A DNA stretch of 64,000 nucleotides from NCBI GenBank assembly GCA_016196625.1, contig JACPXH010000007.1:150461-214460 (forward strand). Reading direction: 5' to 3'. A program made the translations under genes and the position numbers. Shown here piece by piece: positions 19,920 to 26,103 of this stretch. The notes beneath the pieces were generated by a model. It was not told the origin of the DNA and searched no databases. It saw only the letters and a program-made list of their open reading frames with translations. Each line of letters starts with the position of its first letter. Position 1 is the stretch's first letter. This DNA comes from Candidatus Parcubacteria bacterium. GTDB taxonomy: Bacteria > Patescibacteriota > Minisyncoccia > JACPXH01.

Positions 19920-22913
19920 ATGCCGAGGGCAAAGAAAAAATCTACTGGGGGCGGCCCCATAGCATCGCCGATGCGGCGAGCTACGAGGCAAGGCGCGATT
20001 CGTATTCGAGGTGCACGAGTGCACAATCTCAAAAACATTGACGTGGACATCCCGCGCAATAAACTCGTCGTGATCACGGGTTTATCGGGATCAGGCAAGT
20101 CGTCCCTTGCGTTTGATACCCTCTACGCCGAAGGCCAGCGCCGGTACGTGGAATCACTCTCGGCCTACGCGCGCCAGTTCTTGGGTGTGATGGACAAGCC
20201 CGACGTGGATACAATCGAGGGGCTGTCCCCCGCTATTTCCATTGATCAAAAAAGTGTCTCCAAAAATCCGCGCTCCACGGTTGGTACGATTACCGAAGTG
20301 ATGGACTATCTGCGGTTGCTCTACGCCCGGGTGGGGAAGCCCCACTGCCCCAAGTGCGGACGCGCCGTAACGCGCCAGACCGTAACCCAAATTACCGATC
20401 AGGTCTTGAAGCTTCCGAAAACTTCGCGCGCGCTCATCTTGGCGCCCATGGTCAAAGATCGCAAAGGCGAGCACCGGCAGCTCTTGGTCGACTTGGAGCG
20501 CCGCGGCTTTAGCCGTGTGCTCATCAACGGCGAAGTCTTGCGTATTGAGGATGCCAAGCGTCTTATCTTTGATAAGCACACCAAGCACACGATTGACGTG
20601 GTCGTAGATCGTATCGAGATTGGAGCAGACGTTGACCGGCCGCGCGTGGCTGATTCGGTGGAGATCGCGCTGCGGCTTGGCGACGGCATGATGGCTGTGT
20701 CTGTGGTTGAAGACGCGACTAGGCTGCAGCTGCAGTCGCCGCGCCCGCCCAAAGTTGGCACCGCCAAGTCGCTCAAAGCCGGAGGCAGCCCTGGAGACCT
20801 CATTTTCTCCGAGCACTTCGCCTGCCAGCACTGCAACGTTAACCTCCCCGAGATAGAGCCGCGTACATTCTCGTTTAATAGCCCCCACGGCGCCTGCCCC
20901 ACCTGCACGGGTTTGGGAAGCTTGCTTAAGGTTGATCCCAAGCTGGTGTTTCCCAACCCACGTCTGACACTCGCCGAGGGTGCGATCCGTCCGTGGGCCT
21001 CGGCTTCGCACCGCGTGGGCCGGCAGTCGTGGTATTGGTGGATTTTGGACGAGCTGTCCAAGAAACACGGCTTTTCACTCTCGACGCCCGTGAAGGATCT
21101 GTCCAAGAAAATCATTGACCTGATTTTGTATGGTGAGCAGGGCGCTCTGATGCTCCGCTCAGGCGATTGGGAAGGCCGGACTGAATTTGAGGGCGTCATT
21201 CCCAACCTCGAGCGACGCTGGAAAGAAAGCGATTCGGAGTTCACGCGTGGCGAGATTGAACGCTATATGGTGATCACGAAATGCCACGCGTGTCTTGGCA
21301 AGCGTCTCCGGCCCGAAGCCTTGGCGGTGAAGGTTGTTGGTCAGACGATTGATCGGGTACTTAACTCGCCGGTGAGCGCATCAGCGACACTGTTCCGTTC
21401 GTGGCTTACGGATGGTGTATTTACCGTGGCCGAGCGCACGATTGCTACACCTCTCCTCAAAGAGATTTTGAACCGGCTCCAGTTTCTCCTTGAGGTGGGG
21501 CTCGATTACCTCACGCTTCATCGCGAGTCCACAACGCTTTCCGGTGGCGAAGGCCAGCGCATCAGGCTCGCCACACAAATCGGCTCGCAGCTGACCGGAG
21601 TGCTCTACATATTAGACGAACCTTCGGTGGGGCTGCATGCGCGCGATCAAGCTCGGCTCATCGCGACCTTGAAAGAACTTCGAGATTTGGGTAACACCGT
21701 GGTCGTGGTGGAGCACGATCCGCAGACGATCGAAGCGGCGGACTGGGTAGTGGACATCGGCCCGGGCGCGGGCAAGCACGGCGGGCGGGTGGTCTTTACC
21801 GGAACGCCTCGCGAGCTCAAGCGTTCAAAGACTTTAACCGGCGAGTATCTGTCCGGGCGCAAGCGCGTGGGCGCGCCCACGCCCGCAGAGCGCGGGCCAC
21901 ACGACGATGGCAAACGCCTTACGATCCGCGGCGCATCTGAACACAATCTGAAAAACATTGACGTTGCGATACCGCTCGGCAAGACGGTGTGCATCACGGG
22001 TGTGTCTGGCTCTGGCAAATCAACTTTGATGAACGACATCCTGGGGCAAGCGCTGCTCAACCGGTTCTACCACGCGCACACGCAGCCCGGCGCGCATGAA
22101 GCAATCGAAGGTTTCGAACAGCTTGATAAGGTGGTCATCGTGGATCAGTCGCCAATCGGCCGGACTCCCCGCTCAAACCCCGCCACCTACACCGGCGCTT
22201 TCGGTCCTGTCCGCGAACTATTTGCGAGAACCCAAGAAGCCCGCATGCGCGGCTACACGCCCGGGCGCTTTTCGTTTAACGTCAAAGGCGGCCGGTGCGA
22301 GACCTGCGAAGGCCAAGGGTTTAAGAGAATCGAGATGCAGTTTTTGGCAGACGTATATGTGGAGTGCGAGGATTGCCACGGAAAACGGTATAACCGTGAA
22401 GCACTTGAGGTTCAGTGGAACGGGAAGAACGTCGCCGAGGTGCTGGCCATGACGATTGAGGAAGCGCTCCAGTTTTTCAAAAACATCCCGGCAGTCAAAT
22501 CAAAAATCAAAACCATGGTGGAGGTGGGGCTCGGGTACATGCAGTTGGGCCAACCCGCGCCGTCTTTGTCTGGCGGCGAAGCCCAGCGCATTAAGTTGGC
22601 TGCCGAACTTTCGCGCCGCGCCACCGGCAAAACCTTATATATATTGGATGAGCCCACGACCGGCCTGCATTTTGATGATGTGCGTAAACTCTTGCACGTG
22701 TTGACTGAACTCGTGGCCAAGGGCAACACGGTTTTGGTGATTGAGCACAATCTTGACGTGGTCCGCTCGGCAGATTGGGTTATTGATCTTGGTCCGGAGG
22801 GCGGGGAAGATGGCGGTCGGATCGTCGCCGCCGGCACTCCAAAAGACATCGCAAAAGTGAAAGCGAGCTATACCGGGCAGTTTTTGCGACTTGCGGGTCG
22901 TGCAGGTCGTTAG
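19920..22913 (+). CDS. uvrA: Excinuclease ABC subunit A
   Basis: Two ABC ATPase modules ([14 protein letters not shown] and [13 protein letters not shown] Walker A; [12 protein letters not shown] and [12 protein letters not shown] signatures) and zinc-finger cysteines. Start at ATG 19920 (MPRAKKK). An alternative ATG 27 codons downstream (MRRATRQG) lies before the conserved [14 protein letters not shown]. The ORF is open upstream to 19596. Confidence 0.9.
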
Positions 22914-22985
22914 TCAGGTTACACGCATTTTGGACAGTTTGCCTCGGGCGTTACCTCGTTTGGACAAGTCATGCAACGTGTGGCA

Positions 22986-23223
22986 GGCGCCGCACTCCCT
23001 CAGCGATCGTTCGCTCGTCCAGCGACTCGCAATCAAGGAATGCTCCGGGGCGGCGCATTCGGCCTCGCGTCCCTCGATACAACTCGGGACAAGCTCGGCC
23101 GGCGCCGCCCGTTCGGAACCAAGCAGTTGGCTCCTCACCCTCGCTGGCGGCCGATCGCTCAACGCGTTGAGCGCTCGGACCGTGCCCGCCAGCTGCGGAT
23201 GTCGCTTCGGGAGCGACGGCGCC
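22986..23223 (+). other. Structured element, copy B, between uvrA and the three-gene operon. It is the same family as 15900-16046 with a ~110-bp insertion.
   Basis: Shares TCGTCCAGCGACTC (23015-23028), the hairpin GATCGCTCAAC / GTTGAGCGCTC with compensatory base changes relative to copy A, and the tail CTCGGACCGTGCCCGCCAGCTGCGGATGTCG. It has its own closing stem GGCGCCG...CGGCGCC. Confidence 0.4.
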
Positions 23224-23371
23224 TGACCCAATCGGTAGCAACCCTCGCCGATAGTGCGCGTCCGAAATGTGTTCGTCCCGACGCATCATTGACAAACCAT
23301 TATCGCTGTAGTTCCATTTGTTCGTGCGAGCGTTCTGTGGCCTGCAAACCGCCACAGAGGAGGACCGGGCA

Positions 23372-23713
23372 ATGGGAGGCGGAAGGGAGTACCTGCATTC
23401 CATTAAAGGGAGGGCACTTCTCATGGAGGCGTACAAGACGACTTGCGCCGATTGCGGGCATGTTCGGTTCTGGGTGGGCTACAAGACTGGGATCGGAAAG
23501 ACACCAGAGCAGCTACGGGCGATGGAAGAAGAGATGGTGACTTGCGTTGCCTGCGGTTCGAAGCAAGCCACCACCGATCTCGACCACGAAACAGAAGCCG
23601 GGAAGACGTTTGATGCGCAGGCGCAGATGCTCGTTCAGGCGATCGCCGGGTTACTTCGGAAGCCGCAGCTCGGCACAGATACCTCCGGTAATGGCAAAAG
23701 CAAAGGAGGGTAG
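23372..23713 (+). CDS. Hypothetical zinc-ribbon protein (113 aa)
   Basis: AGGAGG-type SD (GAGGAGG at 23357-23363) 8 nt before the ATG. Two CxxC pairs (CADCGH ... CVACGS). Confidence 0.5.
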   Translation: MGGGREYLHSIKGRALLMEAYKTTCADCGHVRFWVGYKTGIGKTPEQLRAMEEEMVTCVACGSKQATTDLDHETEAGKTFDAQAQMLVQAIAGLLRKPQLGTDTSGNGKSKGG

Positions 23714-23717
23714 CGCG

Positions 23718-24074
23718 GTGGGAGTGGAGAGTACGTACGTTCTGCCAGTAAAGGCAGGAACGGTGTTGCGAACCGATCGTGGGTTCCAGCGGATCGCCGA
23801 GGTGGGTTCGAGTTGTACTGATCCTTTCGGCTGTGTGGTGCCGGTTCGACTCGATGACGGCACCCACCGGCTCGTGGTCTGCGAGGGCATGCGGTTCCGG
23901 ACATTTGTGGCGGCAGACCACTTCGTGAACCAGTTGATTCACGAGTCTCCGGTCATGCCTAAGGTGGGTAACCTAGGTAGGGCGCGTTCCTTTTACATGG
24001 AGGTAGTCAGAAAGGATGGCGACCCCATCGATATCGAGTTGCCGCTTCCCTACTGCAATGAGAGGAGGGTGTAG
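23718..24074 (+). CDS. Hypothetical protein (118 aa)
   Basis: GTG start 8 nt after AGGAGG (23704-23709), 4 nt after the upstream stop. An alternative in-frame ATG at 23691 lacks an SD. No recognisable domain. Confidence 0.45.
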   Translation: MGVESTYVLPVKAGTVLRTDRGFQRIAEVGSSCTDPFGCVVPVRLDDGTHRLVVCEGMRFRTFVAADHFVNQLIHESPVMPKVGNLGRARSFYMEVVRKDGDPIDIELPLPYCNERRV

Positions 24075-24076
24075 CG

Positions 24077-24442
24077 ATGCCGTTCGCGCTCGTGTTCCAT
24101 CACGCGCACGTTTCGGTCGGAGAGCTGGATAAGCTTCGGCAGGGCCTTCCCCATGCGATTGCCGGAGCGCTCTCGGTTCCGGGGACCGAAGCAGCCCTCG
24201 AGCCGAGCGAGATCGAAGTCAAGATGTTTCCTTTCGGGCCGTTCGATGTTTCGCAGGGGTATGAGGTGGCCATTGTCATCTTTGCCAACGATTACCCCGA
24301 ACGTCGGAAGATTGTCGATGCTGCGGTAAAACGGATCGGCCAGGAAGCGCGTCGGTGCCTTGCTCCCAACACGCCCGGGTTCGTCTGGATTCGCTTGGCT
24401 CCGGCGGCTTTCTACGATTTTGGAGCCAGGGAGGGTCCGTGA
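24077..24442 (+). CDS. Hypothetical protein (121 aa), possibly a tandem beta-alpha-beta tautomerase-superfamily-like fold with N-terminal Pro1
   Basis: AGGAGG (24063-24068) 8 nt before the ATG. The N-terminus is MP-FALVFHH, followed by a predicted helix and strand. A second similar unit begins at EVAIVIFANDYPERRKIVDAAVKRIG. The fold assignment is inference. Confidence 0.45.
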   Translation: MPFALVFHHAHVSVGELDKLRQGLPHAIAGALSVPGTEAALEPSEIEVKMFPFGPFDVSQGYEVAIVIFANDYPERRKIVDAAVKRIGQEARRCLAPNTPGFVWIRLAPAAFYDFGAREGP

Positions 24443-24449
24443 ATGCATG

Positions 24450-24488
24450 CAGGGCGAGCGCCATCCGGCGCTCGCCCTGTTTCCTTCA
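24450..24488 (+). terminator. Hairpin terminator after the three-gene operon
   Basis: Perfect 13-bp stem CAGGGCGAGCGCC / GGCGCTCGCCCTG with loop ATCC, followed by TTTCCTTC. Confidence 0.45.
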
Positions 24489-24525
24489 TGGCGTCCTCCT
24501 TCGTTCTCTTTCGGCCGATACTTTC

Positions 24526-24554
24526 TTGACCGCACGTTTATCTTTAGATAAACT
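24526..24554 (+). promoter_or_regulatory. Putative promoter plus palindromic operator for the toxin-antitoxin pair
   Basis: TTGACC (24526-24531), 17-bp spacer, TAAACT (24549-24554), 8 nt before the antitoxin ATG. The inverted repeat TTATCTTTAGATAA overlaps the -10 region. Confidence 0.35.
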
Positions 24555-24562
24555 TTCACCAT

Positions 24563-24781
24563 ATGGCACATATTATTGGTTTGAAGGAGCTTCGCGAGAA
24601 CGTTGACGCGTACGTTTCCCAAGTGGGAAAAGGAAAATCGTTTATCGTTGTGCGGCGCTCCAAACCCATATTCAAAATTTCCTCCGCCTCCGAGGCACCA
24701 GAATCGTGGGAGCCAGTCGCTGATTTTACCAAGTTGAGGAAGGGAGGGGTTGGGCTTGAAGAATTGCTTGCGCGTCTCTAG
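24563..24781 (+). CDS. Type II antitoxin, Phd/YefM family
   Basis: 72 aa. N-terminus ELRENVDAYVSQVGKGKSFIVVRRSKPIFKI matches the Phd/YefM layout. It lies immediately upstream of a RelE/ParE-like gene with a 7-nt gap. Confidence 0.7.
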   Translation: MAHIIGLKELRENVDAYVSQVGKGKSFIVVRRSKPIFKISSASEAPESWEPVADFTKLRKGGVGLEELLARL

Positions 24782-24788
24782 GTTACAC

Positions 24789-25028
24789 ATGGATCGGATT
24801 GAAAAGGCGCTGCGGAAGCTTTCACCAAAGGAACGGGTGCGTGTGCGGCACATACTGGAGCGGTTTCAACGGAAAGATGTCCGCGGCCTCGACATGCAGA
24901 AACTGAAGGCCCGGAGCGATGTTTTTCGGGTCCACAAGGGCGACATTCGGATCATTTTTCGGACCAAAGGCGACGACATTTTCGTATTGGCGATTGAACG
25001 GCGGAGTGAGAGCACCTACCGCCTCTAA
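24789..25028 (+). CDS. Type II toxin, RelE/ParE family
   Basis: 79 aa from ATG 24789. C-terminal FRVHKGDIRIIFRTKGDDIFVLAIERRSE is typical of RelE/ParE. Confidence 0.7.
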   Translation: MDRIEKALRKLSPKERVRVRHILERFQRKDVRGLDMQKLKARSDVFRVHKGDIRIIFRTKGDDIFVLAIERRSESTYRL

Positions 25029-25059: not shown

Positions 25060-26103
25060 ATGGCGTATCCACTCAAAGACGCCGTCCTCGCCACCATCGC
25101 CTACCACGACGTGTTGGAGCTTCCCCTCACGCGCTTTGAGGTGGAGCGGTATTTGATCAGGCCCGAACTCCTTGGCGTTTTCCAAGGGGGGGTTCGTTTC
25201 ACGAAGCCATTCGGTCATCGCGAGGCCCCGGAGGGGCCGTGGCGATCTCGAGGGCTTGCTCGCAATGACGGGTCTGATTTGCCGCAGGACATCGGCGTTA
25301 CGCTTGAATCACTCCATCACGAAAAGAAGGTTAGCTGCCGAAACGGTTTTTGGTGTTTGCCCGGCCGCGAGCACGTGGTTACGGAACGCATCGAAAAGCA
25401 TAAGCTGGCCGAAACCAAGTGGAAAATTCTGCAACGGTGGGGGAGGCTGCTTGCGTACGTGCCGTTCGTGCGGCTGGTGTTGGCTTCGGGTTCGTTGGTG
25501 TTCCACAATACCCAACCGGGTTCGGATCTGGACGTGTTGCTCGTGGCGAAGTATGGCCGCATTTGGACGGTGCGAGCCTTGAGCACTGGTTTGTTGGAGT
25601 TGTTCGGCCAGCGCCGGCATGGGAGCAAAATCGCTGATCGCATCTGTTTTAACCACTTCCTCACGGATCAAACGCTCACCATGCCCTACCCGAGTCTGTA
25701 CAATGCCATGACGTACGTTCGGCTCATCCCGCTTTTGGAGCTCGGGGTAACGTTAAAGCATTTTCTTGCCGCCAATGCCTGGCTGGGCGAGTATCTTGAA
25801 CAGGTACCCCAACCGAATCTTGGTTCTTGGAAAACCGCGCGTCGGCCGCCGGGGTCAATGGCCGCCCAAACTTTTTTTGAATGGTTGCTCTCGGGTTTCT
25901 TTGGTAGATGGCTGGAGGCGCGGTTAAAGCAGATACAAAAGAGACGCATCGAGGCTGACCCGCGTAGTTTCGAGCCTGGCGGACGCGTGGTGGCCGACGA
26001 CACCCAACTCGAATTTCATCCGGCTTCGCCAGAAGGCGTGGTACTGGCCGATTATGAGGGTCGCCTGGCCGCACTTGGCTTGATAGAAGGGGAGGGGGGT
26101 TGA
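25060..26103 (+). CDS. Hypothetical protein with a polymerase-beta-like nucleotidyltransferase-fold motif
   Basis: GS...DLDV motif in ASGSLVFHNTQPGSDLDVLLV. Start at ATG 25060 (MAYPLKD), since the longer ORF from 24919 overlaps the toxin. A 56-bp palindromic repeat (25214-25269) lies inside the reading frame. Confidence 0.5.
   Translation: MAYPLKDAVLATIAYHDVLELPLTRFEVERYLIRPELLGVFQGGVRFTKPFGHREAPEGPWRSRGLARNDGSDLPQDIGVTLESLHHEKKVSCRNGFWCLPGREHVVTERIEKHKLAETKWKILQRWGRLLAYVPFVRLVLASGSLVFHNTQPGSDLDVLLVAKYGRIWTVRALSTGLLELFGQRRHGSKIADRICFNHFLTDQTLTMPYPSLYNAMTYVRLIPLLELGVTLKHFLAANAWLGEYLEQVPQPNLGSWKTARRPPGSMAAQTFFEWLLSGFFGRWLEARLKQIQKRRIEADPRSFEPGGRVVADDTQLEFHPASPEGVVLADYEGRLAALGLIEGEGG
25214..25269. 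repeat. GTCATCGCGAG...CTCGCAATGAC palindromic element embedded in a CDS (family copy iii)
   Basis: Termini match the 1961-2085 element with one mismatch. Interior has palindromes GGCCCCGGAGGGGCC and GATCTCGAG. Confidence 0.5.

Follow-up and report, generated by a model that had tools for sequence, protein, structure and literature searches.

Do three small adjacent genes that share the same translation signals make up one molecular system, or do they only look like one? The question is raised by a locus in a Candidatus Parcubacteria bacterium of the Candidate Phyla Radiation (CPR), where three short open reading frames (ORFs) follow uvrA in a 64,000-nucleotide (nt) stretch of DNA (hereafter the window; assembly GCA_016196625.1, contig JACPXH010000007.1, positions 150,461 to 214,460, numbered here from 1). 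An earlier note on this DNA had read them as an accessory module, possibly related to defence or stress. We regard them as a genuine, strongly translated three-gene unit, but one that is probably a lineage-specific mosaic and not a three-component system: the product of the third gene, P3, would be the fixed member, with a tautomerase-superfamily fold, and the first two, P1 and P2, would be independent. The features of the unit, as read from the ORF list and the sequence, are as follows.

23372-23713, + strand: ORF1 from its first ATG, 113 amino acids (aa)
23718-24074, + strand: ORF2 (P2, HYZ80_02695), 118 aa, with a conserved start at GTG 23718 behind AGGAGG 23704-23709
24077-24442, + strand: ORF3 (P3, HYZ80_02700), ATG start, 121 aa, beginning MPF, behind AGGAGG 24063-24068
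24450-24462/24467-24479, + strand: terminator-like hairpin, a perfect 13-bp stem with a 4-nt loop, followed by TTTCCTTC

All three ORFs point the same way, with 4 nt between ORF1 and ORF2 and 2 nt between ORF2 and ORF3. Each has a consensus Shine-Dalgarno (SD) sequence, GAGGAGG at 23357-23363 for the first and the two AGGAGG sites listed above for the others, and the spacer to the start codon is exactly 8 nt in 3/3 cases. AGGAGG as such is not enriched on the + strand of the window (20 observed, 20.3 expected), and AGGAGG with an 8-nt spacer and an ORF of at least 50 codons occurs there in just these three cases. The hairpin at 24450-24479, also in the earlier note, was confirmed, with a fold energy of -33.7 kcal/mol (z = -4.85); a terminator scan did not call it because the T-tract 3' of the stem is weak. 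A compact, co-directional, SD-coupled unit closing in a strong hairpin is thus supported. The public annotation has exact protein matches for all three (HYZ80_02690 for P1), on a contig of 216,792 bp, and each is called a 'hypothetical protein'.

The ORFs, AGGAGG sites and 8-nt spacers that the earlier note described can all be read from the sequence, but its 113-aa length for ORF1 did not stand. P1 almost certainly starts at the ATG at 23423, because every homologue begins MEAYKT (28 of 28 clusters), and is 96 aa long, which makes ORF1 an over-extension by 17 codons. The NCBI entry is likewise 96 aa (MBI3305201.1). Three further features upstream of P2 then need to be told apart.

23283..23371, + strand: promoter-like region and 5' leader, with a TTGACA -35-like hexamer at 23289-23294, the motif CTGCAAACCG and GAGGAGG 23357-23363 at its end
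23368..23402, + strand: relic duplicate of the P2 initiation region (SD spacer, ATG 23372 and ~10 codons)
23423..23713, + strand: P1, 96 aa, with its own SD AAGGGAGGG at 23406-23414

The relic is what gives ORF1 its apparent start. Aligned with the P2 start of the closest relative, L005 (GCA_016186565.1), it agrees in 31 of 34 positions and has a Smith-Waterman score of 51, where the null gives 15.5 +/- 2.5; it is also homologous to the leader and P2 start of a second relative, L004, in which P2 lies directly behind the conserved leader. It reads in frame into P1 in the window genome; in L005 a 1-nt indel throws the upstream ATG out of frame and leaves an 11-codon upstream ORF. Since 23368-23402 duplicates the P2 start, the SD geometries of ORF1 and P2, two of the 'identical' three, are paralogous and not independent. 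A copy of the P2 initiation region stands on either side of P1, an arrangement that is either an insertion scar or a substrate for deletion in L004. We propose an insertion of the P1 gene at the 5' end of P2, with duplication of the P2 ribosome-binding site and first ~10 codons, and that the matching AGGAGG/8-nt geometry would then reflect duplication and translational coupling in a tight operon, not a common function.

The same locus in related genomes shows which of its genes are stable. L007 and L008 are identical to the window; the states, as established from the related loci and by tblastn, are:

Window and L005: uvrA, P1, P2, P3
L004: uvrA, P2, X, P3, 347-aa gene
L001: uvrA, X, P3, 347-aa gene
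L003: X, P3, Phd, RelE, 347-aa gene

P1, P2 and P3 occur together only in L005 (84-90% aa identity) and in the window-identical L007 and L008. P3 is present in every locus state and so is the fixed gene; the variable ones are P1, P2, X and a toxin-antitoxin pair. Protein X (L004:767-1150, L003:15-398 and L001:7613-7978) replaces P1 and/or P2 directly upstream of P3. It is 121-127 aa long, begins MxTVVIVNAGGWGxLSAEKGSYD, is unrelated to P1 and P2, has no Pfam match and is absent from the window; its ratio of non-synonymous to synonymous divergence (dN/dS) is 0.33-0.43. In an alignment of the window, L005, L004 and L001, no intergenic stretch but the leader at 23283-23371 (~85 nt) is conserved, and the first gene behind it is not constant among these four. 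A sigma-70 scan did not call this region; from its sequence it would be the promoter. We therefore picture a slot of variable content, flanked by uvrA and the conserved 347-aa gene, in which one conserved promoter and leader would drive a changing set of small genes, with P3 last and constant.

The earlier note's module, in which a zinc-ribbon P1, an orphan P2 and a tautomerase-like P3 would cooperate in defence or stress, can be judged against these states. In its favour, gaps of 4 and 2 nt and a consensus SD before each gene suggest translation that is coupled and stoichiometric, and the operon sits in a variable slot beside a toxin-antitoxin pair. Divergence also has something to say for a module: over 23423-24300, synonymous divergence between the window and L005 is 0.21 for P1, 0.09 for P2 and 0.15 for P3, four- to eight-fold lower than in the neighbouring C-terminal part of uvrA (0.74), and values of 0.09-0.21 are as expected of a recently exchanged accessory cassette. 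This pattern suggests recent cassette exchange, constraint on silent sites, or noise from short genes. However, none of the three proteins had a PADLOC match at E<=1, and outside the population of the window itself the trio is confined to one close relative, while sister lineages swap P1 and P2 for X. In ~21 other P3-family loci and three P1-family contexts the partner genes are absent, and no recurrent neighbour of P3 emerged from the ~21 P3-family loci. P2 is moreover nearly unconstrained relative to L005. The earlier note had made its module depend on the trio co-occurring in other genomes; beyond the close metagenome-assembled genome (MAG) L005 it essentially does not, and P1, P2 and P3 each have a separate phylogenetic distribution. 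We consider a single functional module very unlikely, and favour the mosaic reading, under which the three proteins are best described separately.

P1 is a putative zinc-ribbon mini-protein whose family extends across the CPR independently of P2 and P3. The family motif is MEAYKTxCxxCGHVRFWVGYKTGxGKT...CxxCGS, and among the 28 members C8, C11 and C44 are invariant and C41 is conserved in at least 90%, along with an invariant M1-E-A-Y-K, W17 and the G19-x-K-T-G-x-G-K block. The two CxxC pairs that the earlier note had seen are therefore confirmed and are near-invariant across the family; they lie ~30 residues apart, and the two Cys-x2-Cys knuckles together could hold one zinc ion. Family members share 45-86% identity over CPR lineages of very different guanine-plus-cytosine (GC) content, and dN/dS for P1 is 0.41, compared with 0.06-0.10 for uvrA. 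P1 is like the small CxxC...CxxC zinc-ribbon proteins (Pfam Zn_Ribbon_TF and Zn_ribbon_8, NCBIfam ECs_2282) in its paired knuckles and sub-threshold matches, but unlike them in forming its own highly conserved CPR family with the MEAYKT...GYKTGxGKT motif. No curated zinc-ribbon model reached its cut-off: the best Pfam score was 21.2 bits for PF08271 Zn_Ribbon_TF (cut-off 29), and NCBIfam NF047912 gave 20.9 bits (cut-off 37). Sequence and profile searches of the PDB with the P1 alignment returned chance-level matches alone.

Three genomic contexts of P1 homologues were examined: after ftsX, before a radical-SAM gene and among membrane proteins. None had a P2 or P3 relative adjacent. The radical-SAM context (L041:4001-5693), in which the P1-family gene overlaps the downstream gene by 8 nt and methyltransferase and glycosyltransferase genes come next, is the sole one that hints at an operon partner, and the hint is not seen in the other two. 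A 121-aa gene near the P1 homologue in L037 was considered as a candidate relative of P3 and rejected. One P1-family member is mislabelled 'ribosomal protein L32' in one source.

P2 is, as far as its sequence tells, a fast-evolving and weakly constrained orphan limited to a narrow clade. Its homologues are an identical copy and those in L005 (84%) and L004 (53%) only; none turned up beyond the clade in 5.8 billion clusters. Scans of P1, P2 and P3 against Pfam, NCBIfam, PHROG and PADLOC brought up only the weak zinc-ribbon matches of P1, and tblastn of P2 against phages gave no match. One might ask whether P2, like the 17-codon extension of P1, is simply a decaying or spurious ORF that happens to be open in a GC-rich genome. 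For the extension, which is frame-broken in L005, we accept this explanation. For P2 it would account for a dN/dS of 0.91 against L005 and for the lack of homologues beyond the clade, but the ORF is intact in three lineages, with start and end unchanged down to 53% identity and 54 invariant columns, dN/dS falls to 0.50 over the longer distance to L004, and a perfect SD stands at a conserved distance. We therefore think it unlikely that P2 is spurious, and treat it as a real gene of 118 aa from its conserved SD-linked start, where GTG 23718 has ATG as its counterpart in both L005 and L004. NCBI instead calls P2 as 127 aa from ATG 23691 in the window, an ATG with no counterpart in L005. Public annotations of the P2 start are discordant, the call in L005 (L005:1774) being 102 aa from a TTG.

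P3 belongs to a large, unannotated and apparently CPR-restricted sequence family, which would be a new family within a known superfamily. In an exhaustive profile search, 558 representative clusters came out at E<=1e-3, and 188 of these at E<=1e-10; a word-indexed homologue search returned five relatives and so missed nearly the whole family. Genome and metagenome scans with the subset of the alignment that carries the ANDYPER motif gave matches; the close-family alignment had yielded no metagenome match. Members are mostly 115-126 aa long, 127 of the 150 best matches begin MP, and the consensus reads MPLVxV...LPxIVAxALxVP...LxPxDIEV...G..D...IxIxANxYPER..NL..R...GFVWVLL.PG.F.EF. Across an alignment of 126 members, Arg76 is invariant (126/126), and Pro2 (116/126, or 92%), Asp57 (90%) and Trp104 (88%) are strongly conserved; dN/dS is 0.22-0.45. 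All named members, each a 'hypothetical protein', and all six genome loci are from Patescibacteria, with lineages labelled Moranbacteria, Azambacteria, Vogelbacteria, Paceibacteria and Moraniibacteriota and one MAG labelled Saccharibacteria.

A 119-aa ORF (MKKVIPTVKVWCLPEGLSEDQLLILHQGIVKVL...) lies directly upstream of the P3-family gene at L013:3611-3967, and also in L036. It has a β-α-β-like pattern and no Pfam match, and could be a second divergent tautomerase-like gene.

The earlier note had suggested a tautomerase-like fold with a catalytic Pro1 for P3 from its MP- start and tandem strand-helix-strand units, and structure prediction agrees. With the 126-sequence alignment, AlphaFold2 (AF2) gave a model with a predicted local distance difference test score (pLDDT) of 96.7 and a predicted template modelling (TM) score of 0.88. 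Its topology is β-α-β-β-α-β (strand 3-8, helix 14-32, strands 47-52 and 64-71, helix 74-93, strand 101-108), i.e., two fused β-α-β units. Foldseek found 148 PDB matches for this model at E<=1e-3, the best being 7puo (E 2.6e-6, TM-score 0.65), and the top 50 were all members of the tautomerase superfamily or designs derived from it (4-OT, tandem or fused 4-OT, cis-CaaD, Cg10062, CHMI, MSAD, D-DT and MIF). A Foldseek search against viral structures gave no match.

The depth of the alignment mattered for this result. With only six sequences, AF2 gave a model with a pLDDT of 73 whose best Foldseek matches were PII/GlnK (E ~0.01, TM-score 0.4-0.5), which would make P3 a PII-like or ferredoxin-like βαββαβ signalling protein. 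However, that model is of low confidence and has nothing at E<=1e-3, the PII sequence signature was not found, and the 126-sequence model matches the tautomerase superfamily only, three to four orders of magnitude better. The PII-like or ferredoxin-like fold was dropped once these consistent matches were obtained, and we now hold it to be extremely improbable; the shallow alignment had pointed to the wrong fold family.

Among known tautomerases, the closest structural matches to the predicted P3 are the fused 4-OT or 'linker' proteins (PDB 6blm, 6vvr and 5unq) and the engineered tandem 4-OT 7puo, with E-values of 2.6e-6 to 7e-5 and TM-scores of 0.57-0.65. P3 shares with them a length of ~120-130 aa and an N-terminal proline, and would share two fused β-α-β units and an arginine at the β-to-α junction of the second unit. 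It differs in having no detectable profile relationship to them, in its own motifs (LPxIVAxAL, DIEV, ANDYPER and GFVWV..P..F.EF), in a 7-residue insertion before β2 and in having no evident equivalent of 4-OT Arg-39. The fold of cis-CaaD also resembles that predicted for P3 (E ~3e-5, TM-score ~0.6), but P3 has Val or Ile in place of His-28 and Tyr in place of Arg-70, does not have the ~30-residue C-terminal extension and is distributed in the CPR only. MIF, D-dopachrome tautomerase, MSAD and CHMI have monomers of ~115-130 aa with two units each, which assemble into trimers and use a catalytic Pro-1. They too are among the Foldseek matches (8vdy, 4gum, 8ur2, 2aag and 4jj9), although these are weaker (TM-scores 0.45-0.57), without a sequence-model match and with other auxiliary catalytic residues.

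Surveys of the tautomerase superfamily recognise five subgroups, defined largely from sequence networks, and equate cis-CaaD Arg-73 with 4-OT Arg-11 (PMC5818174). The P3 model puts Arg76 where β3 passes into α2, as the second helix begins, and the only stretch that hhalign aligned pairs it with cis-CaaD Arg-73 (E 0.065, which is non-significant). A hand alignment suggests that Trp104 and Asp/Glu114 adjoin cis-CaaD Tyr-103 and Glu-114. If P3 is an enzyme, removal of Met1 would expose an N-terminal proline to act as the catalytic acid or base, and the invariant Arg76 (Arg-75 in Pro-1 numbering) would bind a substrate carboxylate as 4-OT Arg-11 and cis-CaaD Arg-73 do. Its active form would be a homotrimer, and its substrate a small enol, keto or unsaturated carboxylic acid.

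P3 could instead have the tautomerase fold but be no enzyme, for example a trimer that binds a small molecule or has a regulatory or structural role. CPR genomes have a reduced metabolism, which would suit this possibility. By hand alignment, cis-CaaD His-28 and Arg-70 and 4-OT Arg-39 are without equivalent in P3, ~8% of the family have no proline after the methionine, and possible non-enzymatic members of the superfamily have been noted (PMC5818174). However, fold stability alone hardly accounts for a Pro2 conserved in 92% and an invariant Arg76, both at positions that would correspond to catalytic or binding residues. We consider a non-enzymatic P3 rather unlikely and continue to regard it as a candidate enzyme.

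Several points weigh against our reading of the locus. Tight SD coupling also fits three products that act together in the window's own lineage, the promoter and the transcript ends of the three-gene unit are putative, and the event at P1 could have been either an insertion or a loss in L004 by recombination between the repeats. For P3, the tautomerase assignment relies on a predicted structure, because no curated sequence model or PDB sequence search places P3 in the superfamily. No Pfam tautomerase model (Tautomerase, MIF and CHMI families) was matched by any of the 126 family members, and three single members weakly match the NCBIfam PptA, DmpI and 4-OT models (E 0.013-0.041). Sequence and profile searches of the PDB with P3 alignments gave chance-level matches only, and when hhalign compared the P3 profile with single 4-OT and cis-CaaD sequences, the scores fell short of significance in spite of a sensible register. 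The TM-scores of the structural matches are moderate (0.55-0.65), and Arg83, conserved in 77% of the family, is Ala in the P3 of the window.

A bolder reading would extend the mosaic in two directions at once. The P3 family would be a sixth, CPR-specific tautomerase subgroup with a cis-CaaD-like site (Pro-1, Arg-75, Trp/Tyr-103 and Glu/Asp-113) that hydrates or tautomerises a scavenged metabolite for these bacteria, which have reduced genomes and often depend on a host. The slot next to uvrA would be a site of cassette exchange, where small genes are captured behind one leader by recombination at the duplicated initiation region, and would serve as a miniature platform for expression that is somewhat integron-like. 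We offer this combination as a long shot.

The genes on either side, which the earlier note had placed correctly in having uvrA upstream and a toxin-antitoxin pair downstream, are as follows.

19920..22913, + strand: uvrA, from the ORF translation and synteny with genes for Pfam UvrA domains in L001 and L005
24563-24781, + strand: Phd/YefM-like antitoxin (Pfam PhdYeFM_antitox, E 1.7e-5, below the curated cut-off)
24789-25028, + strand: ParE/RelE-like toxin (Pfam ParE_toxin, E 0.0034, below the curated cut-off)
25060..26103, + strand: conserved hypothetical gene of 347 aa, the downstream anchor of the locus

The conserved upstream anchor is uvrA. A mechanical ORF runs from TTG 19596 and gives 1105 aa; comparison with L001 moves the start to ATG 19920 (MPRAKKK, 997 aa). 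The Phd/ParE-like pair has a promoter-like site of its own at 24526-24554, by promoter scan, and is a variable insert: L003 has it, and L001, L002 and L004 have no such pair between P3 and the 347-aa gene. Its GC content of 0.52 is below the 0.58-0.60 of its neighbours. Homologues of the 347-aa gene come right after P3 or after the toxin-antitoxin pair in L001, L002, L003 and L004. The protein has no match in Pfam or NCBIfam; by eye, its stretch GSLVFHNTQPGSDLDVLLV resembles the G[GS]...DxD signature of Pol-beta-type nucleotidyltransferases.

Between uvrA and the operon, the 375-nt intergenic region at 22914-23288 (GC 0.62) is predicted to form a long closed structure with its ends paired (377 nt folded, -171 kcal/mol, z = -3.77), and it contains a 28-nt palindrome at 23151-23178 that has one copy in the window. 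Relative to L005, the ends of the region are conserved and the centre is rich in indels; L004 is without the region and L001 has a different spacer of 600 nt. Rfam had no match over 22800-24600.

What the locus offers, then, is a clean, small case of gene turnover behind a fixed leader, with the scar of a duplication still visible. It also holds a practical lesson: the look of a three-gene 'system' was misleading, and an AlphaFold model built from a shallow alignment misled on the fold. The wider interest lies in P3, which represents a family of ~560 clusters, apparently confined to Patescibacteria, that is invisible to curated profiles and yet is confidently predicted to fold as a two-unit tautomerase, with the Pro-1 that is the hallmark of the superfamily and an invariant arginine. 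If this prediction holds, the family would provide a new enzyme candidate for the poorly understood metabolism of the CPR, and a new branch in which to study how Pro-1 chemistry has diversified.

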